Shown here one piece after another: positions 3,118 to 20,257 of a stretch of DNA of 64,000 nucleotides. Both the position numbers and the translations under genes were made by a program. Source of the stretch: an uncultured Anaerolinea sp. Lineage in GTDB: Bacteria > Chloroflexota > Anaerolineae > Anaerolineales > Villigracilaceae. The stretch lies in contig CAYLZI010000001.1 of assembly GCA_964388215.1 (NCBI GenBank), positions 6,980 to 70,979 of the forward strand, written 5' to 3'. Below the pieces are notes generated by a model. It did no database searches and had not been told where the DNA came from. It worked only from the letters and a program-made list of their open reading frames with translations. Within the stretch, counting starts at the first letter, position 1, and each line of letters begins with the position of its first letter.

Positions 3118-3994
3118 ATGGATATTACCCTCGCCTTAGGCGGCGGGGCGCGCGGCGCACCTGGGCGTGCTGCGCGTACTCGAACAAGAAGGCTACCACA
3201 TCCGCGCAATTGCCGGGACGAGCATCGGCGCGATTGTCGGCGCGTTGTATGCTCGCTTTCAAAACGCGGACGAAGTCACCCGCGTCATGCAATCGGTTGA
3301 CCAATCAAAACTCTATGGCTGGCCGCTGGTGGATGGCCCAGGCTTGCTGGGAGTTCGGGGGGTTCACGATTTCCTGCGCCAGCAATTCGGCGAGGACACC
3401 TTTGCAGAATTAGCCATCCCTTGCGCAGCCGTAGCCGTTGACCTGAACAGCAACCGCGAAATCGTTTTGCAGCAAGGCCGGGTGGTCGATGCCATCATGG
3501 GTTCTATCGCCGTCCCTGGCCTGTTCCCGCCCAAACAATACAACGAATACACCCTCATCGACGGAGGCACGCTCGACCCCGTCCCCACGCGAACCGCACG
3601 CGCCCTCGCGCCCGACCTACCGGTGGTGGCAGTCTCGCTCATGGCCCCACTCGACGCTCCCAAAACGCCCCACAGCCTGCCCCTCCCCGTTCCGCAACCC
3701 CTGGTCGAGCAAATTGCCCGGTTAAGCATCACCCAGGCCGTCAGGGTCTTCGTAGATGCCATAGACATCGGCCAACGCCAAATGACCGAACTGCGCCTGC
3801 AGATAGACAAGCCCGAAGTCATCATCCGCCCAGACGTTGCCGAAATCAACCTGCTCGATAAAGTTGAAATCCCCACAATTGCCCAACGCGGCGAGGTGGC
3901 GGCGCTCAAAAGTTTGCCCGCCCTGCGCCGCGCCGTCTCCTGGCAGTCTCGCATAATGCGCGTCGTCCATCGGACGGTTGGCATTGGCTCATAA
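3118..3994 (+). pseudogene. Patatin-like phospholipase, reading frame broken near nt 3154-3160
   Basis: ATG 3118 (AGGA 9 nt upstream) opens MDITLALGGGARG, the GGGxRG oxyanion hole. The continuation HLGVLRVLEQEGYHIRAIAGTSIG (GxSxG) ... IDGG (catalytic DGG) is in the next frame (ORF 3167-3994). Confidence 0.7.
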
Positions 3995-4595
3995 CCTGCG
4001 CTTTGCCTGGGCCATCCTGCCGTATTGCGCGGTATTTTTTGGGATGCTGACCCTGCGAAGCGCCTGGGGCGCGTTAATTGGCTTTCAGCTGGCCCTCTTA
4101 CCGCTCCTGCTGACGAACCGGGAGCGGATTCATCCGTTGCTTGCTCCCGTTTCGACCCGGGTTCTCCTCCCAGCCGCCCTCGCCGGGCTGGCAGCCGGTC
4201 TTGGACTATGGCTCATCTGGCCGCTGACAGGGATTCCACCCGATTACCCGGCCCGCGTCGAATCGCTCGGCCTGCACGAGGGGACCTGGCTGCCCTTCAT
4301 CGTCTACTTCACCCTCATCAACCCCTTCATCGAAGAAGCCTACTGGCGCGGCAACCTCGGCAGCGATTCGCGCCTGCCCCAACCAGTAGATTTCCTGTTT
4401 GCCGGGTATCACGTCATCATCATCGCCTTATTCGCCTCCCCGCTCTGGTCATTGCTCGGATTTTTAATCCTGGCCGGGGCGGGTTGGCTTTGGCGGCAGA
4501 TTTCGCGCCACGCAAAAAGCCTGCTGCCCGCTGCCCTCTTTCACATGCTGGCCGATTTTTCGATTTTGGTGGCGTTATATCTCAAGGCTGGCTGA
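3978..4595 (+). CDS. CPBP family intramembrane protease (CAAX/Abi type)
   Basis: 205 aa polytopic membrane protein with FIEEAYWRG (EExxxR) and AALFHMLADF (HxxxD/N) motifs. TTG start is uncertain. Confidence 0.65.
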   Translation: MALAHNLRFAWAILPYCAVFFGMLTLRSAWGALIGFQLALLPLLLTNRERIHPLLAPVSTRVLLPAALAGLAAGLGLWLIWPLTGIPPDYPARVESLGLHEGTWLPFIVYFTLINPFIEEAYWRGNLGSDSRLPQPVDFLFAGYHVIIIALFASPLWSLLGFLILAGAGWLWRQISRHAKSLLPAALFHMLADFSILVALYLKAG

Positions 4596-4637
4596 TGGAA
4601 ATACCAACACTGGCGGAAGAGCGTTTCAGCCATCGCG

Positions 4638-5675
4638 CTAACGCACAACCAATATCACATTTGGCCCTAACTGTAGCCGCATTCCCGAATTAATAACATA
4701 AGGGGCCTGGGGCGTGAGTCGGGTGCCGTTCAAAAATGAGCCGTTGGCGCTATTCAAATCTATCACCTGGGCTTGCTTCAAATCTGGGTTGTACCGAAAT
4801 TCTACATGCTGGCGTGAAACTTCCTTTTCGCCAAGTAAGAGCGGGTGCGAGCGTCCAAGAATCGCAGGGAAGGTGTCTATTGTTAATGTGCCGCTGGCGG
4901 CTGCGGCTTTTTCAATAAACAGATGCAACCCAGGTAGAGCCTCTCCCATCATTGTTACATTTTCATCCTGTCTACCAGATGTCAAAGACCCAAAAACCGG
5001 TTCCGATTTGCCAGATTGGGTCTCCAAAAAAGAGGCGGGATGCAGGTGTTGTTGCGCATCCTCTACAGTGGGTTGCATCAAAAAAGTCATTTTAACGTTT
5101 TTGCCAAAGAAAAGAGTATCTTTGTGGCGCAATTCTGCTTTTTGGCCGGGTGCCAACACTTTTTTATTTAAGATGGTTGGGTTGGTGGGGGTTAAAGATT
5201 CGAGATAATATTTGCCATCCTTCATGCTGATTTGGGCATGGCGGCGCGAGATGCTCATACCGTTTGGGTGATTCTGGAAATTGACCGCCAGTAACATGTT
5301 ATGCTCAGCACTGTTGGTTGGCCTGCCTATCAAGGCTGGCGTCCAATCCAAAGCATATTCCCTGTCGGTTTCTTCATCCCGCAGTTTGATGCGCCCGGCG
5401 TCGAGCATCTCACGCAGGTCATCGCGGTTGGCATAGGCCAGGGTCAGTTCGTCTTGAGGCTGGATATCGGCCTTCTCGAGGGTTTGTTCGCGCGGCAGGC
5501 TTTTTTTGCTGCCCTTTAGATATAGAGCATAGCGTTCGGGCGAATCTGCCGGAATATCATCGAATTCCTTCAATATCTCTTCAATCAGCTCTCCCAACCG
5601 AAGCGTTTTTAACACCTGGGCGCGCTGGCCCTGGCGGTCAAAAATATCCAGTCGTATTTCGATATATTCTTCCAT
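4638..5675 (-). CDS. Ubiquitin-like (YukD/EsaB-like) domain fused to two FHA domains
   Basis: The N-terminal ~80 aa beta-grasp-like segment ends in TLEKADIQPQDELTLAYA. FHA 1 is LIGRP...MSISRRHAQISMKDGKYYLESL. FHA 2 is ILGRS...EVSRQHVEFRY...DLNSANGSFLNG. GGAG lies 9 nt upstream of the ATG. Confidence 0.75.
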   Translation of the reverse strand: MEEYIEIRLDIFDRQGQRAQVLKTLRLGELIEEILKEFDDIPADSPERYALYLKGSKKSLPREQTLEKADIQPQDELTLAYANRDDLREMLDAGRIKLRDEETDREYALDWTPALIGRPTNSAEHNMLLAVNFQNHPNGMSISRRHAQISMKDGKYYLESLTPTNPTILNKKVLAPGQKAELRHKDTLFFGKNVKMTFLMQPTVEDAQQHLHPASFLETQSGKSEPVFGSLTSGRQDENVTMMGEALPGLHLFIEKAAAASGTLTIDTFPAILGRSHPLLLGEKEVSRQHVEFRYNPDLKQAQVIDLNSANGSFLNGTRLTPQAPYVINSGMRLQLGPNVILVVR

Positions 5676-5677
5676 GC

Positions 5678-8600
5678 TTATGCTCCATCTTTAGGGGCTG
5701 GTTCAACGGGAAGAAGGCCCATGACGCGTGCATTGTCGAGAATATCGGCATCTGAAAGATGCGAGAGCAGGGCTTCGGGCACCCCACGCTCGAGCAATCC
5801 CTGTTTAAGTACCGCCAGGTCATATTCGGCGGAGGCAGGCATCCCCGAGGTGGGTTGCTCTGTAGCAGCAACTTGTTGCGAGGCCGGGGTGGATGGTGAT
5901 TCGGGGGTGGGCGTCTTCCAGGCCACCTTTTGATTTTGGTATCGCTTTTGGATTTTGCCAACCCAACCATCCAGGGATGCTTCCACATCATCATCTGGGT
6001 AAGGGCTGGCAATTTGGAGCATACTGGTAATGCCTGAACGGATAATGAAGCCTCGCCCCATTGGCAATTCGACCTCCGCAAGGCTGCGCGGGAATTTACC
6101 ATTCAGACGGTTGACCGCCTCTGCGCTCTTTAAGGCAATCCCAAAACTTGGCGCAGCAAAGACGCGGCGAAGGTCATCGGTAGCGCTCATAATGCCTAGC
6201 GAACCTGCTACCACCATGTAAACGCCAGCAGTCTGATATTTGCGAATCAGAGCCGAGGCGTTTTCGAAAAAGGCTGAATTTTTGCGGCTGGATTCTTCTG
6301 TGAAGGCGTCGTAATTGTCAATGAACAGCATAATTTTGCGGCGGCGCGGGTTTTTGTCAAATTCGGCGCATTCTTCTGCCAGATTGGCATAAAAATTATC
6401 CAGTTGGGAGATATCGTCAATGGTTTGGACGACGTGAGGCAGGTTTGCCAGGGAGGTCTGTTCTCCTTTCCAAAGTTTGCGCGAGTAATCTACCAGCACC
6501 ATCATCACTTCATCGGGTGAGTAATGCCAGGCAATCGAGAGCATCATCGTCCGCAGGGTGGTGGTCTTGCCAGAGAAGGGCTGTCCGATGACAACCAGGT
6601 GCGGGCCCTGTCGTTCAATATCAATCAGGGCCGGAGCCAGGCTGCGGTCATCAATACCCATTACAGCATGAATACGACGTACTTGAGGAAGTTTTGATTG
6701 ATGGAGCAAGTTATCGAGCGATGAACGCGCTGGGAGCGTTTCAATGGAGGATGGCTTTTCCCCCGTCCAACGTTCGTCCCACAATTCCTTCATCTCGATG
6801 CACATTTGCTTTGTTCTTGCCAAACCATCTGGGTCGTTTTCGGTTGGGTCAAATGTCAGAGCAGTTTGGAATTCAAGCGGCATATTGCCAACCCGCGCAT
6901 AACCACGCCCAGGGACGGGGCTTAAATCGGCGGGAACGCCGCGCCCGACGATGTCACCATAATCTGATGCGTCTGTCAGTTTGAGTGTCAGCCGCTCAGT
7001 CACCAGGCTGAAGAGTTTGCCGCCTAACGCGCTGGGAGATTCGGCTGAGAAGATGAAATGTACGCCGTAAGCGCGCGATTCGCGAATCAGCGACATGAGC
7101 GGTGACATCAAGCCATCGTAATATTCTTTAAATTCAGCGAAATTATCAATAACCAAAAGCACTGCCGGAAGGCGTTTTTCGGGATAGATGGCATTGTAGG
7201 TGTCCAGGTTAATAACTCCCGCATCGCTAAACAGCACCTGGCGGGCATCAATGATGTCGGTTACCTTTCTCAGGACGCGCAAAACGCGCTCTTCTTCTTC
7301 GGCGGTGATGACGGCCCCAACGTGGGGTAAATCCTGAAAGACAGACAATGCCCGGCCGCCAAAATCAAGGATGTAGATGTGAAGTTCGTCTGGTGAATGG
7401 GAAAGCGCCAGGCCAGAGATGACGGTTCGCAAGAAGGTGGTTTTCCCGCGCCCAGACGCGCCAAAAATGACAGCATGCCCGTTGGGGAAATTAATAGAAA
7501 GGGGCTTCTGAATGGCTTCATAGGGATTGTCTATGATTCCAAGCATTGGGCGCATGGCTGTTTTTCCCCAGCGAGCGCCTTGCCAGTCAAAACGGCCGGA
7601 TAGGCAGGCATTGGCCTGTTCATTCAGGCAAACTCCGTTTGCGTCCTCTGCCCTGCTCATGCGCAGCAGGGATAAATCATCGTCAGTCATGTAGTCCGTG
7701 TCCAGCCTGGTTTGCAGAGAAAGAACGTTTTTGTCTTTTTGCAGAGGCAGGAAGGCGGGCCAGGGTCTCCATTGCGGCTTAGATTCCTGAGTAGAGAGAT
7801 TGTATAGCATCTTGACAATCTCGTCATATAGTTTTGGCGGCTCTTCTTGCTTTTTTGCGTCTGATTTTTTTCGGTCCAGCCAGATGACGTTGGGGTTGCG
7901 CGATTCTTCTTGCGGCCCTTTGTAATCACCGCCTGTATAAGCCGTTTGGATTAATTCGATATTTTCGTTGCCAATCTGCAAATAGCCGCGCCCAGGAATA
8001 CCAGGCGGTAGGAAGGCCGCATCAGAGCGGCGCAAAACCTCGCGGCTGTCATCTGGCGTTTCAACGCGTAAACAGATACGGAATTTGATATTAGCGCGCA
8101 TCTGGTCAGTTACGCCAACGGGGCGCTGGGCCGCCAGGATGAGCGTGACGCCCAATGCGCGCCCAAGCCGGGTGATGCTTTCCAGTTGGGCCTTATACTC
8201 CGCGTTGCCAGAAATCATTTCAGCAAATTCATCAATGATGATAAAAAGATGCGGGTAAGGCTGGCTGTCTTCTTTCAGGTTTAGCCCTCTTTGGCGGTAG
8301 TGAACAATATCTTTCGATGCAGAGTAAGTGTTCAACTTCTGCCGCCGGTCGAGTTCGGCGATGATGGATGCAAAAACGCGCGCAGTAGCCGATTCGTCCA
8401 AATTGGTGACGATATCCACTGCATGAGGAAGTTTTTTGAACGGGTCGAAGGCAGACCCACCCTTGTAATCAACCAATACAAAGTTTAGCACATCTGGGCT
8501 GTAATTAAGCGCCAGGCCGATGATGAGGGTCATTAAGAGTTCGGATTTCCCCGAACCGGTAGAACCAGCGATAATACCATGCACGCCATCTGCTTTGGCC

Positions 8601-10216
8601 GAAAACGTCAGCACGCGCGGCTCATTTCCTGAAAGCAATCCAATTGCCGTTTGAAGCCAATCGGCTTGTCCAGGATTTTTGCTGCGCTGCCAGTTTTCTC
8701 GTGAAAAGTTGCGTAATTCATCCAGTGTAGAAAGGTTGAGCATTTCCAGCAAGGTCACAGTGGATGCCAGGCTTGCGCCGTATCCGCGCCGAAGTTCCTG
8801 TGGTTCAAGGGCGCGGGAATACTGCCGGGCAGTATCCTGGCTGTCTACTAAGGATGTCGTTCCGACATAGCGAATGGTGTTAAAACCGGTTTCGGCGTAA
8901 CGAAAGACCGCCTGTCCATTATCGTCGGCGAACTTGTCCACTTCCAGTATGGCTGAACAACGGCTGGGCACTTTTGAACGTTCAGGAACTAAAAATAATA
9001 TCCCTGCGCCCAACATTTCTCCGTCCATCAGGATGGTTGAAATGGCAGCTTCGCTTTCCAGGTCATGAAGGCACGACCAGCCGGGGGCCGGATGCAAGAC
9101 ATCTACCACAACCAGCAAGAAGGGCAGGCGCACATCCGCGCCACTTTCTTTGTCCTTATCTTGCAAGCGCATTCGCCGGCGTTCCAAAATGGTTCGAATA
9201 TTTTTCCAAAACAAGCGCATCCGGTCTGGCTCATTTTCTCCAGGCTTCTGCTCACTCTCAAATCGCAGAGTTTCAGACTTATCTGATTCTTTGCAGTGCG
9301 GCAAGGCATACGCCCAACGCCAGTCTGCCCGCGCAACAGCAGTTCCTGCGACATAGAGCATCGTATCTTGTGGAGAATGGAAGGTGGCATAATCAACCAG
9401 CATGGTGCGCAGGTAAGCGTAAATTTTTTCTGGGTCGCTGCCCGTAATCCCTATGGAATGCCGGATGGTCACGCCTTTGGCTTCTTGCGCCTGTTCTTCT
9501 TTCTCGCCGTCAGACTGCTGGTCGCGCTTCTTTTCAACTTTTTTGCGTTCTTTTTCATTCAGGCTCAGGTACATTGGGACAGTTACAGGAACCCCATATA
9601 GCAAACGCGAATCTTCTGCCAGGCGGGTCGCTTCGCGCATTAATGGGTTTTCAGGTTTTTCGTCTTCGGAGATTTTGTATATAACTGTAGATTGACGGGT
9701 GCTTAGGCCCAGGCGCAGGTGCAAAAAATCGTGGTCGGTGGGCCGCCGCTCCCACAACCTGGTTCCCGAACGAATAGCCTGTTCCTGTTCTTGGGACGAG
9801 CGATACAAGTCCAGGGCAATGTTGAGAGATTCAGATGGGTTGGGGTAGTTGTAAAAATAATAAATTCTTTGTTGTTCATGTTCGCTTTGCATTTGGCGGC
9901 GTAGTTCGCCCAAACGGCGCAGATAAGCAGCTTTGGCTTCTTCTATCTTCTTGTTTTCCTGAATGTGTGAGTAAACCGAGAGCAAAACCGCGCCAACAAT
10001 GGATATCAACATAGGTATCATCATTGTCATATTACGGCCCTGCCCAAAAATAGATACGAGAAAATACCCCATAATCATAAGCAAGGGCAACATGGCTTGC
10101 TGAAGCAAGCGCATCGGGTCTTTTTCGGTATCTGGCGGGTTAGGAATATCGACAACCCCTGAGGGCAGTTCCGGTTCAATCCGAGGCGGGCGTTCAATAT
10201 AAGATTTTTCAGTCAT
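5678..10216 (-). CDS. EccC/EssC-like type VII secretion ATPase (FtsK/SpoIIIE family, three P-loop modules)
   Basis: 1512 aa. N-terminus is IERPPRIEPELPSG followed by two TM helices. Walker A motifs are GSTGSGKSE, GASGRGKTT and GQPFSGKTT, with Walker B-like IIIDEFAE, LVIDNFAE and LFIDNYDA. Confidence 0.9.
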   Translation of the reverse strand: MTEKSYIERPPRIEPELPSGVVDIPNPPDTEKDPMRLLQQAMLPLLMIMGYFLVSIFGQGRNMTMMIPMLISIVGAVLLSVYSHIQENKKIEEAKAAYLRRLGELRRQMQSEHEQQRIYYFYNYPNPSESLNIALDLYRSSQEQEQAIRSGTRLWERRPTDHDFLHLRLGLSTRQSTVIYKISEDEKPENPLMREATRLAEDSRLLYGVPVTVPMYLSLNEKERKKVEKKRDQQSDGEKEEQAQEAKGVTIRHSIGITGSDPEKIYAYLRTMLVDYATFHSPQDTMLYVAGTAVARADWRWAYALPHCKESDKSETLRFESEQKPGENEPDRMRLFWKNIRTILERRRMRLQDKDKESGADVRLPFLLVVVDVLHPAPGWSCLHDLESEAAISTILMDGEMLGAGILFLVPERSKVPSRCSAILEVDKFADDNGQAVFRYAETGFNTIRYVGTTSLVDSQDTARQYSRALEPQELRRGYGASLASTVTLLEMLNLSTLDELRNFSRENWQRSKNPGQADWLQTAIGLLSGNEPRVLTFSAKADGVHGIIAGSTGSGKSELLMTLIIGLALNYSPDVLNFVLVDYKGGSAFDPFKKLPHAVDIVTNLDESATARVFASIIAELDRRQKLNTYSASKDIVHYRQRGLNLKEDSQPYPHLFIIIDEFAEMISGNAEYKAQLESITRLGRALGVTLILAAQRPVGVTDQMRANIKFRICLRVETPDDSREVLRRSDAAFLPPGIPGRGYLQIGNENIELIQTAYTGGDYKGPQEESRNPNVIWLDRKKSDAKKQEEPPKLYDEIVKMLYNLSTQESKPQWRPWPAFLPLQKDKNVLSLQTRLDTDYMTDDDLSLLRMSRAEDANGVCLNEQANACLSGRFDWQGARWGKTAMRPMLGIIDNPYEAIQKPLSINFPNGHAVIFGASGRGKTTFLRTVISGLALSHSPDELHIYILDFGGRALSVFQDLPHVGAVITAEEEERVLRVLRKVTDIIDARQVLFSDAGVINLDTYNAIYPEKRLPAVLLVIDNFAEFKEYYDGLMSPLMSLIRESRAYGVHFIFSAESPSALGGKLFSLVTERLTLKLTDASDYGDIVGRGVPADLSPVPGRGYARVGNMPLEFQTALTFDPTENDPDGLARTKQMCIEMKELWDERWTGEKPSSIETLPARSSLDNLLHQSKLPQVRRIHAVMGIDDRSLAPALIDIERQGPHLVVIGQPFSGKTTTLRTMMLSIAWHYSPDEVMMVLVDYSRKLWKGEQTSLANLPHVVQTIDDISQLDNFYANLAEECAEFDKNPRRRKIMLFIDNYDAFTEESSRKNSAFFENASALIRKYQTAGVYMVVAGSLGIMSATDDLRRVFAAPSFGIALKSAEAVNRLNGKFPRSLAEVELPMGRGFIIRSGITSMLQIASPYPDDDVEASLDGWVGKIQKRYQNQKVAWKTPTPESPSTPASQQVAATEQPTSGMPASAEYDLAVLKQGLLERGVPEALLSHLSDADILDNARVMGLLPVEPAPKDGA

Positions 10217-10227
10217 CGTTTGTCATC

Positions 10228-11340
10228 CTACACAGGCGAGATAATGAGGGCCAGGCTGAGAATGATGAATATAGCCAGGAGAGCGCCCAAAACAATAAAA
10301 ACCATGCGCCAGTTCATGCGTACGGGCTTTTTTTCCGCAGGAATAGGTGGCAGATTCTTACTCAGATGGTAAGCAAACTCTCTGACATCTGCAAAACGTC
10401 CGTCAGGAAAATGATTAATGGCTCTTTCAGCGATGTTGGGCAGGTCTTTCAGGTCCACTCTACCGGTGGGAGCCGCGCTGTCAGCCAAAACTTTCTGGTA
10501 AACGGCAGAATCGCGCAACAAATGATATTCAAAGGCCGGCTTGCCTGCCAACATTTCGTAAAGCAACAAGCCCAGCCCATAGACGTCTGTCTGCGCGCTG
10601 ACAGGTTTCTCTTGTAAAATCTCAGGGGCAGTATAAGCAGGCAAGTTATAAGAATCGCGCCAGGTTGAGGCAAAGTTTTGGGCGGTATCACCCAAGCCCA
10701 AATCTAATAACATAGCGCGCGGAATACCCTGCTTATCATAACGAACCAAAACAGAATCGGGATTGAGGCAAAGGTGGGATTTCCCGGCCCGGTGTAAATA
10801 AAGGATGACATCGGCAATGCTCAAAGTAATCCAACCGGCATATTGATACCAGGGCTGAGGGTTTTTCAGGAGCAGGTTGCGCAGGATTGTCCCCTCTGCA
10901 AAAGCAAAAACTTCATAATAGCGAATATGACCATTGACGACAATCCATCCATACGGATGCAATTGGCGGCTGCCGTGTATGTGGGCCGGCAGCAAAACCG
11001 GCAAGAGGGGATGCTGCCCCGCTTCTGCCAATTGCAAAAAAGCGCGCGCTTCTCGGCGTAATTTGTCTTCGTTCCCAGTGGTTGCAACCTTGAGGAGGAT
11101 GCGTTCTGTCTCGCGCTGCGCTTCGTAAATAATAAAAGCGCGGGCGATGACAACCGGCTGGATAATTTCGATAGGCCCGAACCACTCACCGTTATCAAAG
11201 ATTTCGGTGGCGTTTTCTGCCGGGCAATCTTTTTGCTGGCACCACAAATTAAAGTCTTGTGAAATAACATTACAACGCTGGCAAATTCGCTTCACATCGC
11301 ACCTCGCGCCAGATTGGTACATGGAATAACAGGAAACCAC
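10228..11340 (-). CDS. Tail-anchored protein-kinase-fold protein, predicted pseudokinase, with N-terminal Cys-rich (zinc-ribbon-like) segment
   Basis: Kinase-fold landmarks are kept: ILLKV, DLG, YTAPE, DVYGLGLLLYEML. HRDLKPxN is replaced by HLCLNPDS and there is no GxGxxG. CQRC-x11-CQQKDC sits at the N-terminus and a single TM helix at the extreme C-terminus. Start may be GTG 11340 or ATG 11322. Confidence 0.7.
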   Translation of the reverse strand: MVSCYSMYQSGARCDVKRICQRCNVISQDFNLWCQQKDCPAENATEIFDNGEWFGPIEIIQPVVIARAFIIYEAQRETERILLKVATTGNEDKLRREARAFLQLAEAGQHPLLPVLLPAHIHGSRQLHPYGWIVVNGHIRYYEVFAFAEGTILRNLLLKNPQPWYQYAGWITLSIADVILYLHRAGKSHLCLNPDSVLVRYDKQGIPRAMLLDLGLGDTAQNFASTWRDSYNLPAYTAPEILQEKPVSAQTDVYGLGLLLYEMLAGKPAFEYHLLRDSAVYQKVLADSAAPTGRVDLKDLPNIAERAINHFPDGRFADVREFAYHLSKNLPPIPAEKKPVRMNWRMVFIVLGALLAIFIILSLALIISPV

Positions 11341-11391
11341 GCCCAGGAAGAAGCCTGGACGTAGTTTCCTGCTTGGGCATCAAGAGCATGA

Positions 11392-11691
11392 TTAACCCAC
11401 AAATCGCTTAGAGCCAGATGTGTCTCCATCACGGTAAGCCGCAATGGCGCTGGTGATGTCCCCCGAAAGTTCCTTCATTTTTTCAGCAAGCCGCTTAATA
11501 TTGGGCAGAATGCGGTCAATAAACATCGCAGCCGCGGCGGTAGCGCCTCCCGAAAGCCAGGCTGTAACCTTCAAAACAATGCTCATTGCTTCAAGCGTTT
11601 TGGCAACCGCATCTAAAATTTCGCCAAAATTGGCAAATTTCTGGCTCATATCCTGCACAGCAGGAATATCCATATAGACTTCTTGTGCCAT
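11392..11691 (-). CDS. WXG100-like small protein (99 aa)
   Basis: Size, predicted two-helix layout, central AWLSGGATAAA turn and C-terminal YRDGD (YxxxD). GAGGAG SD upstream. Lies in the tandem WXG array. Confidence 0.6.
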   Translation of the reverse strand: MAQEVYMDIPAVQDMSQKFANFGEILDAVAKTLEAMSIVLKVTAWLSGGATAAAAMFIDRILPNIKRLAEKMKELSGDITSAIAAYRDGDTSGSKRFVG

Positions 11692-11708
11692 GTTTGCTCC
11701 TCTTTCGT

Positions 11709-12041
11709 TTAGTAAATCTGGCTAAAGACATCAATGAGCGTTTGGGCAGCCTGGGTTGCCTGCCGTTCCGCCTGGCGCATTCGTTCGGCAGACCTGCTGA
11801 TAGCCGAAGCATAGCTCTGGTTGGTATTCATAATGTTGACAAGCATGGGGATGACCTCGCTGGTCATTTCTTCTACAAAACGCACAGAGCCATCACCGCG
11901 CCAAACGCCGCCTACCACCTGGGCCACGATGGCGCGCAGGGGGGCCGTAACGGCATCTTCAATGATTCTGACCTGAGACAAAATTTGCTGCACAACGCCT
12001 TCCAGCAGCCCAAATACCAATTTGAAAAGCCCGCTAAACAT
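11709..12041 (-). CDS. WXG100-like small protein (110 aa)
   Basis: Central VWRGDGSVRFVEEM (W-x-G). AGGAGGTG SD upstream. Confidence 0.6.
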   Translation of the reverse strand: MFSGLFKLVFGLLEGVVQQILSQVRIIEDAVTAPLRAIVAQVVGGVWRGDGSVRFVEEMTSEVIPMLVNIMNTNQSYASAISRSAERMRQAERQATQAAQTLIDVFSQIY

Positions 12042-12057
12042 TATTCACCTCCTGGCT

Positions 12058-12351
12058 TTAATTAAACTTGACGCCCGCTTTGCCATCGGCAGCTTGCATA
12101 TCGGCGATAGCATGGCGGATATCGCTGGCAATTTCACGATATTTCTCGCTTAGTCTGCCTACGCGGTTAGAAAAGATACCCAATGCCATAACATATGTTT
12201 CCCCAGGCGCGCCTTGCAACGCACCGTTTTGCATTTGGGATGCGATTTTCTGGGCAGTGGAAGCAGATTGGGCCAGCCGGGCGGCAGCATTGTCGCATTG
12301 GCGCGCCATATCTTCCATGGCCGGGTAATTGGTACGGATAATATCACTCAT
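12058..12351 (-). CDS. WXG100-like small protein (97 aa), W replaced by L
   Basis: N-terminus MSDIIRTNYPAMEDMA is typical of the family. The central turn is ALQGAPGETY. AAAGGAG SD upstream. Confidence 0.65.
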   Translation of the reverse strand: MSDIIRTNYPAMEDMARQCDNAAARLAQSASTAQKIASQMQNGALQGAPGETYVMALGIFSNRVGRLSEKYREIASDIRHAIADMQAADGKAGVKFN

Positions 12352-12380
12352 TGTTATTTCTCCTTTCAGTTTTTTGCCGG

Positions 12381-12686
12381 TCAGGCCATGTTGGAGAAGT
12401 ACCCTTTGGTCTCTTCATCTGCTTGCTGAACAATTTGCATGATTTGTCCGGCAACGCTGGCAGCGACTTCAAGAGCAGCAATCATTTTTTGGGTGCGCGG
12501 GAGCGCAATGGTATTCATTTCTTCATAGAAGCGGTCAGCACCTTCACCAATCCACTGACTGCCATGCAGCGCGTCGGCCATCTGCTTCGTTTTTTGGTAC
12601 AGTTGTTGGATGTCGGCCTTTTCAGTTTCCAACATGCTGACGATGCTTTGCATTTCTTCATAGTTGACTTGAATCAAGTTAGACAT
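12381..12686 (-). CDS. WXG100 family protein (101 aa)
   Basis: MSNLIQVNYEEMQSI... with canonical central SQWIGEGADRFYEEM. AAGGAG SD upstream. Confidence 0.8.
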   Translation of the reverse strand: MSNLIQVNYEEMQSIVSMLETEKADIQQLYQKTKQMADALHGSQWIGEGADRFYEEMNTIALPRTQKMIAALEVAASVAGQIMQIVQQADEETKGYFSNMA

Positions 12687-12773
12687 TGTTTTTCACTCCT
12701 TGAGAAAAAGCGTGTGGTTCTACAAAACTGTGGATTAGTGCAAAGGTTTTATGATAGATAAATAACCACCTCC

Positions 12774-13664
12774 TTACTCTCGCGATTCTTTTGCTAAATC
12801 TTTGACTTTTTTAGCAGCCGCGCCAATCGCTGCGGCTGCCCCGGCAAGGCCGGCGGCCATGCTCCCGGCAGAAACCCCAGGTTTCTCGGTAAAATCAGGC
12901 TGCAAGGCAGGGTCGGGCGATTCTGTAACTACTGGGGGGTTATTCGATGTAAATAGGTGGTCTGGCATGGGTTGTTCGCCTCCGCTGGTTGCGCTCGTTT
13001 GGGTTGGCTCCGCGCCCAAAGCACTACCAAGCCCATTCAAACTTCCCTGTAAACCAGAGCTGCTCGAACCGCCGCCCCCGCCGCCTCCAGATGATGACGC
13101 CGGATCGGTTGGGGTGGGTTGCTGGCCTCCCAATTTTTGTCCACCAGATGAAGAATTTTCTTGAGCGGCTGATTGCTCAGCAGCCGAAGGTTGATTCGCG
13201 CCTGGTGCTGGGTCGCCTGGCCCACTCCCACCAGAACCAGGGTCACCTGACCCACTACCGCCAGAACCAGAGCCGCCTGCCCCGCTCCCGCTAGAACCGC
13301 CTGATTCTGCGTTCGAAGGGCTGTTCTGCCCTGGCAGGGGATTGTTAGAAGTACCCCCTAAAACGCTTTCAGAAGAAAAATGTTGGGCAATTTCGTCATC
13401 TTCTAATTGAATAATCTGCATTATTTTTCGCAAGGCTTCATCGGCAAGCAAGAGCGCCTCCCCGGCGCGTTTATGGGCAGGCAGAGCAACTTCTTCCATC
13501 TCTTTATAAAACGCATCTGCCGATTTGCCAATCCAATCCTGCCGCAGGGCGTGCATCCGCTGACGCAAGAGAGAATGGTCCTGTAGAAGCGTCTCGCCTT
13601 CATCGCGGAAGATGCGCGCAATTTTGACCAATTCGTCATAGTTCAATTGCAGCAAAGATGACAT
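12774..13664 (-). CDS. WXG100-domain protein with long Gly/Ser/Pro-rich C-terminal extension (296 aa)
   Basis: The N-terminal ~100 aa (LQLNYDELVKIA...QDWIGKSADAFYKEM) is WXG100-like. About 170 aa of G/S/P-rich low complexity follows, then an Ala/Gly-rich hydrophobic stretch MAAGLAGAAAAIGAAA. Confidence 0.75.
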   Translation of the reverse strand: MSSLLQLNYDELVKIARIFRDEGETLLQDHSLLRQRMHALRQDWIGKSADAFYKEMEEVALPAHKRAGEALLLADEALRKIMQIIQLEDDEIAQHFSSESVLGGTSNNPLPGQNSPSNAESGGSSGSGAGGSGSGGSGSGDPGSGGSGPGDPAPGANQPSAAEQSAAQENSSSGGQKLGGQQPTPTDPASSSGGGGGGGSSSSGLQGSLNGLGSALGAEPTQTSATSGGEQPMPDHLFTSNNPPVVTESPDPALQPDFTEKPGVSAGSMAAGLAGAAAAIGAAAKKVKDLAKESRE

Positions 13665-13676
13665 AGCAACTCCCTG

Positions 13677-15929
13677 TTAGCGGGTAATTTCAATCCGAAT
13701 CATAATTTTTGTCCCCAGTCGAACCATCGAACCGGGCTTAATCTCCACTGCCTGCGATGGGATTAATTGGAGGTTATCAACATACGTTCCATTACGACTG
13801 CCCAGGTCGGTTAAGCGATACCCTCGCCGAGCGGGGTCATAATCTATTTGGGCATGACGGCGCGATAGGTGCGGCTCAGGGATTTGCACTTCTCCCTCGG
13901 TACGTCCTATCACAACCGGAAACTGCCTGAGCGGGCGGGGTTGGCGGTCTATCTCGACAGGCGCATCAACAAGAACCAGTGTCAGGGCTGGGAAGACGGA
14001 CTCCATTGTTCTAGCAGTTTCATCCGCTCCCACAAGGGTTTGAGCGGCAATCTGTTCTTTCGCAACCGGAGGAACTTTCACTTCCCTGTTTCTGGGGCGC
14101 GCCACGAAAGGCTCATCTGTCGCAATAGGCAGCCCAGAGCCAGCCCGCAAATTTTTCCCTAATTCACCGCCCATGACAGGCGTGCCGCTGGCTTGTTTTT
14201 GCCTTGCCGAAGTGAACATCAGGAATCCTACCAGGCCAATCACAACTGCCAGGATTGCGAGCAGAAAAACAGGGTTGGCAATCATGGCTGAAGAGAGACG
14301 CTGGAACAGGGTAGGGGCTTTGTAATTCAAATCCTTATATGTATCTATTGAATATTCATTGCCGTCATCAGCCAGCGCGCGTAAAACAAGCGTATATTTT
14401 CCGCTAAGCACGCGGTTGTTTCGGAGTGGAATAATGAGCGGGTCATCGGGCTTCCCCATCATCCGAAATTCAGACCCTTCAACTTTGATGTTGGTATCCT
14501 GATTGACCAGCCAGCCATCTATGCCAGCCACCAGCGCGAGGTTGGTCAACGAAAAATCCACTTCTAAGTCAAAACCTTTTTGGCTGATTGCCTGTATTTT
14601 CAACGTCGGGAATGCCGAAGATGGGTCATAAATGAATTCGTGCCTGATTTCGCTGGCAGGCTTATCATCCTGACGGGTAATCATGAAAGGGGCGTTATCT
14701 GCCAGAGAAATTGCAGAAATTAGCAGGTAGTAACTTCGATTGGTAGTCAGAATGGATGCCGGGATTGAGTAGGTCTTGTTGGAAGATAGGTCCTCGAAAG
14801 GATATTCGCCCATCTTCGAACCGGCACTTTTGTCCCAAACTTCAATTTTGATATATTTGACCAGCTCTGGCGAAGTCATGGATAAATCAACATCATAAGA
14901 CCGGCTGGCAGCGTTGAGCGAAAAGCCCTTTAATTCCACCCTAACCTTGCTCGGCGGGCCAGGGTAGTCGGTATTTGAATTAATCGAAAAGGTTTTGCTG
15001 ATGCTCTGCGAGCCAGGTAAATTAATCGTGAGCAATACCTGGCTTGTCCCGCGCTTTGGGTAAACCTCAACCTGAACCATCCACTGAGATTTCAGCGCGT
15101 CCATGATGTTGCCAAAGGCGCTGGCGAGGTCGTCTTTTTTGACAATCGCAGAACCCCCGCCTGTCGAAGACGCCCACCCTTTGAGTTCAACTTCATTCAA
15201 ATCACCATCTTTAAGCGATAGGCCGATTGTGCTGATGGGAACCTGGCTATCCATGGCAAGATTCATCACTTCATTGAAGTTTCTCTTGCTGCACTGCTTT
15301 CCATCAATTTTTACATCTTTTCCATCAGTGAACACAATCACCGCCCGGCGGCCTACGGGCGCTTTTTGAATCGCTTCGACTGCGCTGTAAGCGGCATCGT
15401 ACAAACAGGTGCCGCCCTGCCTCTTGACAGCATACTGGTCAATGGCAAATGTAACTGCCGGGATATTCTGGGTAAAATCTTGCAGCAGTTTAATTTCGTC
15501 GTTAAATTGCACAACCGAAAAAAATGAATTATTGGGAGTATTCGTCAGCGCGGCTTTCGCGGCGCGCTTCAAATCTGGCTCAAGCCCCCCCATGCTGCCG
15601 CTTGCATCCAACACCAGCGTCACATAAATTGGAATATCAGGCCGGGTAACGGGAGACTGCGCAGTCTGGTTATACTGGGGAAGGCTAATTTCTGCATTTT
15701 GGGGCTGCGGCCCCATCACAGGCAGGCTGGTTTTGGGGTCTAATATGTTGAAGTAAACCTTCATCACCAGACCATCCGGCGTTTCCAGAGTGGAGACCTG
15801 GCTAATGCGAAGTTCCAGGCCAGTGTCTTGCTGGGCCTGCGCAATGCGAGCAAAACAAAGCAAAATCGCTAGAAAAACGACTGTAAAAATCGGCCTTGTA
15901 AGCATTCCACTTCCCTTTGGCGTATACAT
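13677..15929 (-). CDS. Membrane protein: signal peptide, extracytoplasmic VWA domain plus beta-rich region, TM helix, cytoplasmic FHA domain
   Basis: Signal-like ...LLCFARIAQAQQ. MIDAS motif LVLDASGSMGG and VIVFTDGKD. TM helix VFLLAILAVVIGLVGFLMF. C-terminal FHA is VVIGRTEGEVQIPEPHLSRRHAQIDYD...LTDLGSRNGTYVDN. Confidence 0.8.
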   Translation of the reverse strand: MYTPKGSGMLTRPIFTVVFLAILLCFARIAQAQQDTGLELRISQVSTLETPDGLVMKVYFNILDPKTSLPVMGPQPQNAEISLPQYNQTAQSPVTRPDIPIYVTLVLDASGSMGGLEPDLKRAAKAALTNTPNNSFFSVVQFNDEIKLLQDFTQNIPAVTFAIDQYAVKRQGGTCLYDAAYSAVEAIQKAPVGRRAVIVFTDGKDVKIDGKQCSKRNFNEVMNLAMDSQVPISTIGLSLKDGDLNEVELKGWASSTGGGSAIVKKDDLASAFGNIMDALKSQWMVQVEVYPKRGTSQVLLTINLPGSQSISKTFSINSNTDYPGPPSKVRVELKGFSLNAASRSYDVDLSMTSPELVKYIKIEVWDKSAGSKMGEYPFEDLSSNKTYSIPASILTTNRSYYLLISAISLADNAPFMITRQDDKPASEIRHEFIYDPSSAFPTLKIQAISQKGFDLEVDFSLTNLALVAGIDGWLVNQDTNIKVEGSEFRMMGKPDDPLIIPLRNNRVLSGKYTLVLRALADDGNEYSIDTYKDLNYKAPTLFQRLSSAMIANPVFLLAILAVVIGLVGFLMFTSARQKQASGTPVMGGELGKNLRAGSGLPIATDEPFVARPRNREVKVPPVAKEQIAAQTLVGADETARTMESVFPALTLVLVDAPVEIDRQPRPLRQFPVVIGRTEGEVQIPEPHLSRRHAQIDYDPARRGYRLTDLGSRNGTYVDNLQLIPSQAVEIKPGSMVRLGTKIMIRIEITR

Positions 15930-15994
15930 TTGTATATGGAATTATCTTAACAGGAAAAACACTTGTAAGCAACAATGTATTTCTTTGCAAAATT

Positions 15995-16006
15995 GTCAGC
16001 GCTGAC
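15995..16006. promoter_or_regulatory. Perfect 12-bp palindrome GTCAGCGCTGAC upstream of the secretion-locus operon
   Basis: Read directly. Lies 66-90 nt upstream of the two candidate starts of the VWA-FHA gene. Operator function is only a possibility. Confidence 0.3.
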
Positions 16007-16028
16007 TTAACCGCAAGACTTACATTGC

Positions 16029-16051
16029 GCTGGCTGCCTTTGGCAGCCAGC
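16029..16051 (-). terminator. 10-bp stem / 3-nt loop hairpin downstream of the Crp/Fnr gene
   Basis: GCTGGCTGCC-TTT-GGCAGCCAGC is a perfect stem. No U-tract follows on either strand, so terminator function is uncertain. Confidence 0.4.
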
Positions 16052-16134
16052 CGTATTCAAACAAGCATGGCTTCTTGCCCAACAAAACCGTTTTATTGCT
16101 ATATCATACCCACTTTACCAAAGACAATCCACCA

Positions 16135-16833
16135 TTAGTTCCATGGCTGCGCCCACTGTTGCAGCACATCGTTATCTTTGATGAGAATCCGCCGGTTTTC
16201 GACATCAATCGCCCCTGAGCGCTCCAACTCGCGCAGGGAACGCGCCACCACCTCACGCACAGTGCCGAGGCGCGCCGCCAGTTGGTCCTGGGTCCAACGG
16301 GTTGAGCCATCGCCGCGCAAGTCCTCAGGCGGAATCTTGCCAATCAGCCGCGCCAGGCGGTGCGTCACCTGGTAAAAAGCCATCTCGCTGACCAGGTTGA
16401 CGAGGTGGCGCATCATCCGCGAAAAATTTTGGATAGTTTTCCGCATAAACTCTGGGTCGGCGCTCATTAACTCCTGCACCGCATCCGCATCCACCACCCA
16501 GGCGGTTGTTTCCTCCAAGGCTTCCACGTTAACCGGGTTCTCGCCGCCATCGAAAACGGGAACCTCGTTACAAGTATCGCCCTCCTGCATTACACGGATG
16601 ATGTGCTGACGGCCAAGCGGGGAAACGCGAAAAAGTTTGACACTCCCTTTTTGGATGATATGCAACCCGGCGCACGGGTCGCCCTCCCAAAACAGGACTT
16701 CGCCGCGCTCAAAACGCCGAAGCGTGGTTGAAGCAGCTATTTTTTTTAACGAATCTTCACCTAATCCCTGGAAAAAAAGGTTGGAGCGCAGGGCATTCAG
16801 TTTTTCAGATGGGTCGATTTTTAGATGCATCAT
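16135..16833 (-). CDS. Crp/Fnr family transcriptional regulator
   Basis: cNMP-binding beta-roll (GEVLFWEGDPCAGLHIIQKGSVKLF) plus a C-terminal HTH (TQDQLAARLGTVREVVARSLRELE). Confidence 0.85.
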   Translation of the reverse strand: MMHLKIDPSEKLNALRSNLFFQGLGEDSLKKIAASTTLRRFERGEVLFWEGDPCAGLHIIQKGSVKLFRVSPLGRQHIIRVMQEGDTCNEVPVFDGGENPVNVEALEETTAWVVDADAVQELMSADPEFMRKTIQNFSRMMRHLVNLVSEMAFYQVTHRLARLIGKIPPEDLRGDGSTRWTQDQLAARLGTVREVVARSLRELERSGAIDVENRRILIKDNDVLQQWAQPWN

Positions 16834-17002
16834 GGGAGTATTGTACCTGAAATCGCCAAAACGCTGCGCAAAAGTAAATAGACGAGGGTAGAATTATGCC
16901 ATGCACAGCATTTTATGATAAAGTGTATGTGACCAAGCAGAGGGTGTAATCCGCTGCCCATATAGTTTGAGAGATATGCCCATCTGACGTGAGAGGAACA
17001 CC

Positions 17003-17560
17003 ATGAAAGCCATCAAAATACTGCGCGCTGAACAAGAACTGATTGACCGGTTCCTGACTGTCTTTGGCCTGGGGGCTGTCAAAGCGGCCCAAAATAAACC
17101 CGTCCAAGCAGGTTTTTTCATTTATGGTTGCAGTTTCATCAAAGAATTTATCGAAAATAGTTACTTCAAAAAAGAGCAGGTGTTATTCAAAGTGATGGAA
17201 GAAAATGGGCTGGCAACCGATAGCGGGCCGCTCCAGCACATGCTTGAGGAAATCACCGCCAGCCAAGAAATAAGCAGTGACCTGCTCGCAGCAGCACGCC
17301 AATGGCAAGGAGGCGACCTGGGCGGGCGCAACGGCATCATTTGGGCAACCAGCGGCTATACCACCATGCTGCGCCAGCATATTGACCGCTCACGAAGCAT
17401 CATCTTCCCCCTTGCCGAACAGATTATCCCACTAGACGAGCAGTATAAAATTGCCGAAGCCTATAACCAAATCGTATTTGAAGAAGGCGAAACCCACCCG
17501 TTTGAACATTACGAAAAAATCGTCACATCCCTGAAAGACGAAACCGACGACTGGAAATAA
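17003..17560 (+). CDS. Hemerythrin-like domain protein with degenerate metal ligands
   Basis: Spacing and flanking residues match the ~185-aa hemerythrin/HHE family as I recall it (ILRAEQELI, FIKEFIENSYFKKEQVLF, GPLQHMLEE, LRQHIDRSRSIIFPLAE). Most positions expected to be His are Q/Y/F/E. Confidence 0.5.
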   Translation: MKAIKILRAEQELIDRFLTVFGLGAVKAAQNKPVQAGFFIYGCSFIKEFIENSYFKKEQVLFKVMEENGLATDSGPLQHMLEEITASQEISSDLLAAARQWQGGDLGGRNGIIWATSGYTTMLRQHIDRSRSIIFPLAEQIIPLDEQYKIAEAYNQIVFEEGETHPFEHYEKIVTSLKDETDDWK

Positions 17561-17586
17561 GCGCGCCACCAACCCGGAGGAGAATT

Positions 17587-18366: not shown

Positions 18367-18424
18367 CTCACCTTACGCAGCCCGCCAAATACTTTCACAG
18401 CCGTCATCACTAACCCCGCCTTCA

Positions 18425-18815
18425 TCACCAGACATTTTTAATGTTGAGCAAGCAAAAAGAGCCGGGCAAGTGCAAATTTAGGTTGAGGCAATAGTCGAGA
18501 AACGCCAAGCCCATGCGAAAAATGCTCCAGTCCGAACGGTCTGTACGGTGAATGAGTCTGTCATAATTGGTTCGCATGGCAGGAATGCCGAGGTAGACGG
18601 GCCACAGGTACGCCAGACAAGCGGCGGCCATCAATCTTGTCAATCGCTTGGGGATTATGGCCGCCGAAGAAAGTTTCAATTTGAAAGCGTTCTTTGTAGC
18701 AGTGCCAGGCCTCATCAGGCAAGTCAAAGTTGGTGACAAGATAAATAGGTTCCGGGCATATTGCAAACGTACCCCCGCTTTTTTGCCGCGCTTGCGTAAA
18801 CAGGCGGATTAGCAA
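18425..18815 (-). mobile_element. Degenerate IS (DDE, IS4-like) transposase C-terminal remnant
   Basis: YKERFQIETFF (YxxRxxIExxF signature) in one frame. A second overlapping ORF (18425-18766) occupies another frame. No intact transposase ORF and no terminal repeats identified. Confidence 0.55.
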
Positions 18816-20246: not shown

Positions 20247-20257
20247 GGAAGACCTTT

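Follow-up and report, generated by a model that had tools for sequence, protein, structure and literature searches.

A conserved nine-gene cassette of Anaerolineae with the predicted parts of a type VII-like secretion system

Gene content of the locus

Nine co-directional genes lie on the minus strand at positions 4638-15929 of a 64,000-nucleotide (nt) stretch of DNA, hereafter the window, from an uncultured Anaerolinea sp. of the phylum Chloroflexota (contig CAYLZI010000001.1, assembly GCA_964388215.1). Numbered p1 to p9 by rising coordinate and read from p9 to p1, they encode an ATPase of the EccC/EssC family (p2), five WXG100-like proteins (p4-p8), a putative ubiquitin-like (Ubl) protein with two FHA domains (p1), a zinc-ribbon pseudokinase (p3) and a membrane protein that joins a VWA to an FHA domain (p9; Table 1). 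The arrangement of these nine genes lies far beyond chance, because the same genes recur in the exact order p9-p8-p7-p6-p5-p4-p3-p2-p1 in 44 of the 45 complete loci of other genomes, as seen in a synteny survey that an initial annotation of the window, made from the sequence alone, had proposed.

All nine open reading frames (ORFs) listed in that annotation were found again at its coordinates, and two starts were moved downstream. The more likely start of p3 is the GTG at 11295, which gives a protein of 355 amino acids (aa), because this form has an identical entry in the database (P0121) and the homologues of alignment A1 begin there too; an exact look-up of the 370-aa ORF gave no match, the 355-aa form being the one on record. 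Similarly, the ATG at 15905 is the likelier start of p9, for a protein of 742 aa, since a AAGGGAAG Shine-Dalgarno sequence precedes this codon and the gene call in an identical contig agrees. With the revised p3 start, the gaps from p9 to p1 measure 12, 87, 29, 16, 17, 96, 11 and 2 nt, so that the initial range of 2-87 nt stands for most of them and the largest is now that between p4 and p3. AGGAG-type Shine-Dalgarno sequences, which had been noticed before the small genes, are present upstream of p4, p5, p6, p7 and p8. A promoter and terminator scan of the region returned promoter-like sites that were no commoner than in shuffled sequences.

Table 1. Genes of the cassette and the promoter-like match upstream of it, in positions of the window.
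Feature	Position	Strand	Product or character	Remark
p9	13677..15905	-	signal peptide, VWA (MIDAS), transmembrane segment and FHA; predicted type I membrane protein	ORF reaches 15929; more likely start given
p8	12774..13664	-	WXG100 head, G/S/P-rich extension, Gly/Ala segment and K/R tail	
p7	12381..12686	-	canonical WXG100 with W-x-G and C-terminal HxxxD/ExxhxxxH	
p6	12058..12351	-	WXG100/EspC-like hairpin without W-x-G; C-terminal M-x-x-x-D...F	
p5	11709..12041	-	WXG100-like, W-K/R-G-D-G turn, without C-terminal signal motif	
p4	11392..11691	-	WXG100-like, W-x-S-x-G turn; C-terminal Y-x-x-G-D-x-S-G-S-x-R-F	
p3	10228..11295	-	zinc ribbon, degenerate Hanks-type kinase fold and C-terminal transmembrane segment	more likely start given
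p2	5678..10216	-	EccC-type ATPase	1512 aa
p1	4638..5675	-	putative YukD-like beta-grasp, FHA1 and FHA2; predicted soluble adaptor	345 aa
sigma-70-like promoter match	15941..15969	-	just upstream of p9; 9/12 matches	fits by position only

An ATPase of the EccC/EssC family and five WXG100-like proteins

The ATPase p2 opens with an ERPPRIEP motif, followed by two transmembrane (TM) segments (aa 40-58 and 63-81), a D0 domain and the domains D1, D2 and D3, and Pfam recognizes three FtsK_SpoIIIE stretches in it. The NCBIfam models EssC (3e-206), EccCa (2e-142) and EccCb (4e-110, above the curated cut-off) match it far better than those of DNA translocases, FtsK (2e-19) and TraB (1e-7), each of which covers one P-loop domain only; this upholds the initial view that the ATPase is not of the FtsK or conjugative type. 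Among sequences of solved structures in the Protein Data Bank (PDB), the closest are Thermomonospora curvata EccC (4nh0), EccC5 and Bacillus subtilis YukB. The N-terminus had been called EccC-like, and aa 12-198 indeed align with the N-terminus of EccC3; Pfam finds no FHA domain on p2, whereas two N-terminal FHA domains on EssC are a trait of the type VII secretion systems (T7SS) of class b (T7SSb).

The Walker motifs of p2 are GSTGSGKS with DE in D1, GASGRGKT with DN in D2 and GQPFSGKT with DN in D3. All three Walker A motifs are invariant in 46 orthologues, in which the Walker B Asp-Glu is found only in D1 and is Asp-Asn in D2 and D3. An intact Walker B Asp-Glu in D1 only is the pattern described for EccC. 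Beyond D3 and a variable linker, p2 has an additional conserved segment of about 50 residues (aa 1461-1512; 5678-5833) with the consensus YD.p.LK..L.E.GLPE.ML.LFSD.DIVENARAMGLL, for which we know of no equivalent in EccC or EssC. As judged from its sequence, p2 is a membrane-bound, multi-P-loop ATPase of the EccC/EssC family, as is generic to T7SS.

The small proteins p4-p8 form five separate conserved orthologue groups, each a single-copy core gene of the cassette. TIGR03930 matches all five with E-values from 1e-5 to 8e-14, which, together with the EssC/EccC scores of p2, bears out the core of EccC-type ATPase and WXG100 proteins proposed at the outset; on these profiles, the pairing of at least one WXG100 gene with the ATPase that marks T7SS in general is present. 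Three of them exceed the Pfam WXG100 gathering cut-off of 27.3 bits, namely p6 (35.0 bits, 1.8e-08), p7 (34.6 bits, 2.4e-08) and p8 (28.1 bits). TIGR03930 gives p7 7.9e-14, above its own cut-off, and p8 2.3e-10; p6 also matches T7SS_ESX_EspC (1.6e-3). The W-x-G turn occurs in p5 (47/53 orthologues), p7 (49/52) and p8.

The C-terminal pattern HxxxD/ExxhxxxH, as defined in PMC3935865, was found in 52 of 53 orthologues of p4, 50 of 51 of p6, 41 of 52 of p7 and in the WXG domain of p8 in 32 of 44, against 1 of 53 for p5; shuffled tails carry it at 5-10%, the tails of p4 at 10%. The C-terminal motif of p4 (Y-x-x-G-D-x-S-G-S-x-R-F) fits YxxxD/E equally well. In p8, the WXG100 domain is followed by about 150-250 residues of G/S/P-rich low complexity, a hydrophobic Gly/Ala segment of small-xxx-small type and a Lys/Arg-rich tail, an architecture kept in 43 of 44 orthologues. 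A tandem repeat of 3 x 30 nt (13210-13299) lies within the extension. From its composition, the Gly/Ala segment might anchor the protein weakly in the membrane or act on membranes in the manner of a glycine zipper.

The FHA adaptor, the pseudokinase and the VWA protein

In p1, a beta-grasp domain (aa 1-81) precedes FHA1, which spans about aa 95-200; then come a disordered linker (aa 210-243) and, at about aa 250-345, FHA2. Its AlphaFold2 (AF2) model, with a mean pLDDT of 86.8, displays a beta-beta-alpha-beta-beta grasp at aa 1-81 and two FHA domains, which Pfam also recognizes (FHA, 4.5e-27). Pfam YukD (PF08817) matches 15 of 40 p1 homologues, at best with 2.2e-5, and gives no match to the p1 of the window itself; one homologue was annotated as ubiquitin-like at its source. 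A Foldseek search with the full model returned the phosphothreonine-binding FHA proteins OdhI, GarA, FhaA and DgcB as best matches, and was so dominated by the FHA domains that it is uninformative on the Ubl domain.

The canonical residues for phosphothreonine (pThr) binding are G117 R118, S143 H146 and N165 in FHA1 and G274 R275, S287 H290 and N311 G312 in FHA2, and the Gly-Arg, the Ser-x-x-His and the Asn of both domains are invariant across 40 sequences. By their sequences, these two domains and that of p9 look pThr-competent. Given that these residues are kept and that OdhI, GarA and FhaA are the best matches, the initial comparison of the FHA domains with those of EssC was not sustained.

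The protein p3 carries an N-terminal zinc ribbon of four Cys (C5, C8, C19, C24) and matches Pfam Pkinase (1.1e-14). A single TM segment at aa 334-352 ends the chain, which stops three residues later and has no extracellular domain. The triplet at the HRD position is H174-L175-C176, invariant in 23 orthologues (alignment A1), so that Cys replaces the catalytic Asp; the Gly-rich loop (GxGxxG) and the Asn of the catalytic loop are missing, and K69 (the beta3 Lys), E82 (the alphaC Glu) and the Asp of D198-L-G are retained. Among 12 distant relatives, the catalytic-Asp position is occupied by C, S, A, N, G, K or others and never by Asp. Because H-L-C is invariant, the Gly-rich loop and the Asn are gone and Asp is never present in relatives, p3 was assigned to a pseudokinase family, and an active Hanks-type Ser/Thr kinase was ruled out by the same three absences.

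The initial annotation had likened this kinase-fold protein to EssB/YukC. Pfam YukC/EssB gave no match, and Foldseek with the AF2 model (predicted TM-score 0.72) returned PknB as best match (1e-13) and Hanks and Aurora kinases as the top 50, and an EssB homologue was rejected on these two grounds. Taken together, the sequences depict a pseudokinase family that is predicted to be catalytically dead and to have degenerated independently of EssB/YukC.

The VWA protein p9 matches Pfam VWA_2 (2e-12), VWA (3.6e-10) and FHA (4.3e-15). Its N-terminus resembles a signal peptide ending in AQA, and a TM segment lies at aa 554-572; since the VWA domain stands behind the signal peptide and before the TM segment, it is predicted outside the cell and the FHA domain inside. 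The predicted outer part comprises an N-terminal beta domain, the VWA domain with the metal-ion-dependent adhesion site (MIDAS) DASGSM (DxSxS) and two conserved Cys, and a beta-rich region that is probably Ig-like. The hydrophobic segments, the MIDAS, the Cys pair and the FHA residues GR/SRRH/NG are all conserved in 45 orthologues.

Distribution, conservation and distant relatives

Loci were surveyed with a pseudokinase-profile scan that depends on exact peptide patterns and covers one genome per species of the GTDB. It yielded 57 species-level loci, which by record title all belong to metagenome-assembled genomes (MAGs) of Chloroflexota (Anaerolineae or other), with one exception, a 7.5-kb contig (L006, JAGXRB010000116.1) in a MAG labelled 'Bacteroidetes'. 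With 89% identity over the pseudokinase match, this locus is the closest to that of the window, and it probably represents a binning error rather than a transfer across phyla. All carriers are MAGs and no named isolate is among the scan matches; as the scan requires exact patterns, cultured species may still carry the cassette. Anaerolineae are filamentous bacteria, abundant in sediments, sludge and soils and for the most part uncultured.

Homologues of the ATPase at 65-75% identity fall in more than 100 clusters (at 90% identity), and the named ones come from MAGs of Anaerolineae, Anaerolineales or Chloroflexota. That the cassette is a real, widespread unit under purifying selection is well supported. 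Two loci depart from the common form: the p6-p5 gene pair is tandemly duplicated in L038, and the EccC, p3 and p9 genes of L055 are split into many ORFs, which points to decay or a poor long-read assembly.

The flanking ORFs of 45 loci were compared all against all and were unrelated, apart from one recurrent neighbour, an active Hanks kinase with an intact HRD motif. It adjoins the cassette in 17 of the 45 loci at a median distance of 457 bp. Three such kinases were scanned: forms of 722 and 777 aa carry a C-terminal PD40/DPPIV beta-propeller, and a 501-aa form showed the kinase domain only. Examples of propeller kinases are found at L026:17168-19336 and L036:2794-5127.

A full-library search with the pseudokinase profile gathered about 199 clusters (at 50% identity) with E <1e-30, most of them of 340-410 aa and matching end to end. 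Four distant relatives could be placed in contigs, and all four lie within related loci. The first (L062) holds a 2302-aa EccC, an FHA protein and WXG100 fusions, and the second (L063) a 196-aa protein matching YukD and FHA and a 1341-aa EccC. The third (L064, 1-17668) encodes EccC, an FHA protein, four small proteins (one of them matching WXG100), PP2C, a 1126-aa VWA-FHA-FHA protein and a Pkinase-FHA-FHA protein; in the fourth (L065), the pseudokinase is accompanied by a 2199-aa EccC, a VWA protein, an FHA protein and a WXG100 fusion. On these domain assignments, the cassette of Anaerolineae is a compact, highly conserved member of a wider family with a core of pseudokinase, EccC, Ubl/FHA, WXG100 and VWA proteins, to which the more distant loci add PP2C phosphatases and active kinases.

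Comparison with known type VII secretion systems

With the T7SSb of Bacillota (EssC/YukB, EsaB/YukD, EssB/YukC, EsaA, EssA, EsxA), the cassette shares two FHA domains, a membrane-anchored pseudoenzyme of kinase fold and, putatively, a YukD-like fold, as well as an ATPase of EssC/EccC type and WXG100 proteins whose C-termini bear the HxxxD/ExxhxxxH motif. Domain calls confirmed that these FHA, kinase-fold and putative Ubl modules of T7SSb type are located on separate polypeptides. The FHA pair is borne by the separate, soluble Ubl protein p1 and not by the ATPase, and it keeps the pThr-binding residues that the FHA domains of EssC lack (PMC10765036). The pseudokinase also stands outside the YukC/EssB family, bears a zinc ribbon and lacks an extracellular domain, and five WXG100 paralogues replace the single one of T7SSb. 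EsaA and EssA had no Pfam match among the nine products.

Similarities to the T7SSa/ESX systems of Actinomycetota (EccB, EccC, EccD, EccE, MycP, EsxA/B) concern the FHA-less N-terminus of EccC style with its two TM segments and EccC3 homology, the EccCb score above cut-off, the several non-identical WXG100 genes and the YxxxD-type C-terminal motif of p4. Unlike in T7SSa, the putative Ubl domain is fused to FHA domains instead of the polytopic EccD, and EccC is a single polypeptide. Neither Pfam nor NCBIfam detected EccB, EccD, EccE or MycP among the nine products, and no further gene is conserved beside the cassette; the locus therefore lacks, as first described, equivalents of these proteins and of EsaA and EssA that such models would recognize. 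The initial term 'hybrid', which implies a mixture of T7SSa and T7SSb, overstates the case: the evidence fits yet another combination, specific to its lineage, of accessory modules that recur among T7SS.

Garrett, Higginson and Palmer (2024, PMC11217815) drew their variants T7SSc-j from Bacillota and Actinomycetota only; membrane kinases, PPM phosphatases, FHA proteins standing alone, TscE as a cytoplasmic VWA protein and the tail-anchored, weakly kinase-like TshM are already found among them. By its description, the T7SSc of Bacillus anthracis and Paenibacillus (TscA-G) resembles the cassette in an FHA-less ATPase nearer to EccC, a membrane-anchored kinase-fold protein, a VWA protein, WXG100 proteins and a YukD-like protein, to which the putative Ubl domain of p1 would correspond. 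However, the active site of TscD is conserved and part of the protein is extracellular, whereas p3 is degenerate and tail-anchored, and the VWA domain of TscE is predicted to be cytoplasmic, that of p9 extracellular and joined to a TM segment and an FHA domain. Pfam found neither a PPM/PP2C phosphatase (TscF) nor an EspG-like protein (TscG) among the cassette products. T7SSc also belongs to another phylum, and it is set apart here on its published description.

In T7SSh (TshA, TshB, TshC, TshG, TshM), TshM is likewise weakly kinase-like with a single C-terminal TM segment and no extracellular domain, and TshC has no FHA domain; this system of Bacillota differs by the EspG-like TshG, the adjacent Tad pilus genes and the lack of a VWA-FHA protein. 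T7SSe, f and j similarly have separate FHA components with conserved pThr motifs, but TseJ and TsfJ of T7SSe/f, again from Bacillota, are DUF6382-FHA and not Ubl-FHA-FHA proteins.

Genes for ESX or WXG100 proteins in Chloroflexi were mentioned in passing (PMC4010439, PMC3935865, PMC10765036), and our literature search found no substantive pairing of type VII terms with Anaerolineae or Chloroflexota. Going by description, several traits of the cassette are absent from both the T7SSa-j classification (PMC11217815) and a survey of Ubl proteins by Iyer et al. (PMC1779556). These are its phylum, the fusion Ubl-FHA-FHA, a pseudokinase with zinc ribbon and H-L-C triplet, a VWA-TM-FHA protein whose VWA domain is extracellular, an invariable set of five WXG100 paralogues that counts p8 with its long tail among them, and a cassette devoid of phosphatase or EspG-like gene. 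The accessory set thus differs from that of every described subtype, and the cassette represents a variation on a machine already known rather than a machine of a new kind. As regards the novelty claimed initially, the exact composition and the phylum are indeed missing from that classification and no characterised system is known to be so composed; the claim was overstated all the same, since kinases, PPM phosphatases, separate FHA proteins, a VWA protein and TshM had all been described before, as had, in passing, the ESX/WXG100 genes of Chloroflexi.

A proposed working of the cassette and its alternatives

We favour the reading that the cassette is a chromosomal type VII-like protein secretion system, a lineage-specific subtype of Anaerolineae (Chloroflexota), and assign it a probability of about 0.75. 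Sequence and structure prediction directly support which domains the proteins contain and how they lie in the membrane, that the kinase site is degenerate and the FHA sites are intact, and that the cassette is conserved as a unit. In T7SS generally, an EccC hexamer is motor and channel, and WXG100 dimers are (co-)substrates whose C-terminal motif docks on the ATPase (PMC10765036, PMC11217815). By analogy, a hexamer of p2 would serve as motor and channel to export p4-p8, which from the survey appear to be the only invariant export candidates. They would leave the cell as homo- or heterodimers; the signal motif is present in p4, p6, p7 and p8 and not in p5, which suggests hetero-pairs, and each signal-bearing protein would probably be paired with the signal-less p5. 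The exported set would include p8, a WXG100 head with a long disordered extension.

In the core unit of B. subtilis, YukD is clasped by the FHA domains of YukB, a DUF domain and a D1 hairpin, and a dimer of the pseudokinase YukC binds FHA2 (PMC12637312). On the simplest reading, p1 and the tail-anchored p3 would similarly rebuild a cytoplasmic assembly hub of T7SSb kind from separate polypeptides, on an EccC without FHA domains. Its assembly or activation might be gated by threonine phosphorylation, as suggested by the intact pThr residues of three FHA domains, the kinases beside 17 of 45 loci, and the PP2C and kinase-FHA genes of distant loci. This idea was already raised for T7SSd, e, f and j, and such gating was demonstrated for the type VI secretion system (T6SS), as cited there (PMC11217815). 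Because p3 appears catalytically dead, the phosphate would be supplied by a kinase encoded elsewhere in the genome. Candidate acceptors would be the conserved TGTPV that follows the TM segment of p9 and PPDT near the start of EccC, in its N-terminus. As for p9, it could be either an envelope-spanning or outer component in the role of EsaA/TsdI, or a sensor of ligand or contact wired to the hub through its FHA domain.

Several observations weigh against this reading. Among the five small proteins first described as WXG100-like, p4 (25.4 bits) and p5 (24.3 bits) fall slightly under the Pfam threshold that the three others pass, with E-values of 1.8e-05 and 3.9e-05 (TIGR03930: 1.3e-05 and 1.6e-07). 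Against the PDB, the orthologue profile of p5 gave a marginal, almost full-length match to Geobacillus EsxA (3zbh, E 0.042), and that of p4 reached EsxA at a marginal E of 0.68 only; hhalign found no significant match between p4 and p5. Their membership of the WXG100 family is probable on these profile scores. The N-terminal profile of p1 aligned with B. subtilis YukD (a query sequence identical to 9qks_A and 2bps_A) in hhalign colinearly and over the full length, although weakly (E 0.016, probability 2.8%), and a search of PDB sequences with it did not recover YukD; the matches of that search were designed helical repeat proteins only and were judged spurious. The YukD assignment of p1 accordingly draws on matches within a part of the family, the modelled fold topology and this weak alignment.

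Further points on the same side concern partners and cargo. No active Hanks kinase was found in the 64-kb window, and Pfam revealed no phosphatase family among the nine cassette products, the rest of the window not having been scanned for phosphatases. Next to the cassette, genes for toxins, LXG or Rhs proteins or immunity proteins were not identified, nor does any family of this kind recur in the flanks. The analogy of p3 with YukC is functional only, without homology to EssB/YukC by any test run. Lastly, the export of the WXG100 proteins and every protein-protein contact are predictions drawn from better-studied T7SS, and all carriers found are MAGs.

It is conceivable, though on balance doubtful, that p1, p3 and p9 are mainly sensory or regulatory, a VWA receptor with FHA outputs that switches on a minimal EccC-WXG100 exporter in the way of Esr. 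In Actinomycetales, the Esr pathway (vWA, MoxR, kinase, FHA) controls Esx, and EsrG(FHA)-EccC fusions were reported (2026 preprint PMC13622651). The tie of vWA, kinase and FHA modules to Esx in that work speaks for such a role, as do the three FHA domains that are pThr-competent by sequence, the Hanks kinases adjoining 17 of 45 loci, of which the two longer ones scanned bear beta-propellers as Esr sensors do, and the PP2C and kinase-FHA genes of L064. Esr, however, relies on MoxR, on a kinase paired with a phosphatase and on a beta-propeller sensor of filamentous form, whereas VWA and FHA lie here on one polypeptide, with the VWA domain extracellular, and the kinase fold is inactive; no MoxR-type (AAA) or phosphatase match was obtained among the nine products with Pfam, and neither recurs beside the cassette. 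Moreover, in 44 of 45 loci the conservation and synteny of p1, p3 and p9 are as strict as those of EccC itself, which is typical of core parts of a machine, and Ubl, FHA and pseudokinase modules are structural in T7SSb (PMC12637312). The sensory and the structural readings of these three proteins are mutually compatible.

A role other than that of a weapon may also be considered, albeit tentatively and with the odds against it: the cassette would be a cell-surface or developmental exporter of filamentous Anaerolineae, whose main cargo, p8 together with the small WXG100 proteins, would build or signal at the envelope, sheath or septa. The Hanks kinase is the sole recurrent flank family in 45 loci, which hold no identified toxin or immunity genes, the architecture of p8 is conserved, and the five WXG100 genes are single-copy core genes rather than variable cargo. 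The effect of EsxAB on development in Streptomyces is a further point in its favour. This proposal nevertheless relies solely on the lack of toxins nearby, and T7SS toxins are often encoded elsewhere, the search being limited to the flanks. The Gly-zipper tail of p8 could equally be a membrane-active effector motif, as reportedly found in TelE.

A last rival would make p2 a DNA translocase of FtsK, SpoIIIE or TraB type, serving conjugation or segregation, with unrelated small genes beside it. In its favour, FtsK_SpoIIIE is the only Pfam family to name the ATPase, and several source annotations read 'DNA segregation ATPase FtsK/SpoIIIE'. This rival is effectively refuted by NCBIfam scores some 10^120-10^185-fold better for EssC/EccC than for FtsK/TraB, by the three tandem P-loop domains and EccC3-like N-terminus of p2, by the five WXG100-family genes invariably adjacent to it, and by the lack of Pfam matches to relaxase, replication or integrase families among the nine products.

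Should the preferred reading of a type VII-like secretion system hold, it would concern a field in which T7SS were studied and classified (T7SSa-j) almost wholly in Actinomycetota and Bacillota, and the cassette would provide a compact, strongly conserved version in a third phylum. In splitting its modules, nature would have dissected the hub of Ubl, FHA and pseudokinase that the structure of B. subtilis T7SSb recently revealed, and the cassette would also be a candidate case of phosphorylation-gated T7SS assembly. The H-L-C pseudokinase family would serve as a marker for related loci and the classification of T7SS would be extended, whereas the principle of type VII secretion, as understood, would stay unchanged. 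More speculatively, and rather improbably at present, the cassette might found a third, phylum-level branch of T7SS, made of a Chloroflexota type and a wider family marked by the zinc-ribbon pseudokinase, in which the Ubl, FHA and pseudokinase hub that is fused or partly fused in T7SSb would consist of free modules and be switched by pThr, and an extracellular VWA/MIDAS receptor would be coupled directly to the motor through its own FHA domain. Such a branch would imply that a minimal machine of nine proteins secretes when triggered by a ligand or by contact, and might preserve an ancestral state linking EccC-type and EssC-type systems.

Surroundings of the cassette in the window

A gene for an Rce1-like CAAX protease (3978-4595, plus strand) converges on the 3' end of the cassette, also on the identical Logan contig (L004), and a gene for a 620-aa multihaem cytochrome c (18834-20696, minus strand) lies on the other side; we found no evidence that either belongs to the system. 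Positions 4300-18700 of the window form a block of about 0.50-0.53 G+C with sharp edges in surroundings of 0.58-0.62, the cytochrome gene standing just past it. Neither tRNA genes nor flanking direct repeats were found to bound this block. In 41 other genomes, the G+C content of the cassette equals that of its flanks (mean difference 0.003). From its composition, the low-G+C block with the cassette looks like a recent import from a relative of lower G+C content. It also holds a Crp/Fnr regulator gene (16135-16833, minus strand), a hemerythrin-like gene (17003-17560, plus strand) and a HEAT-repeat gene (17587-18366, plus strand).

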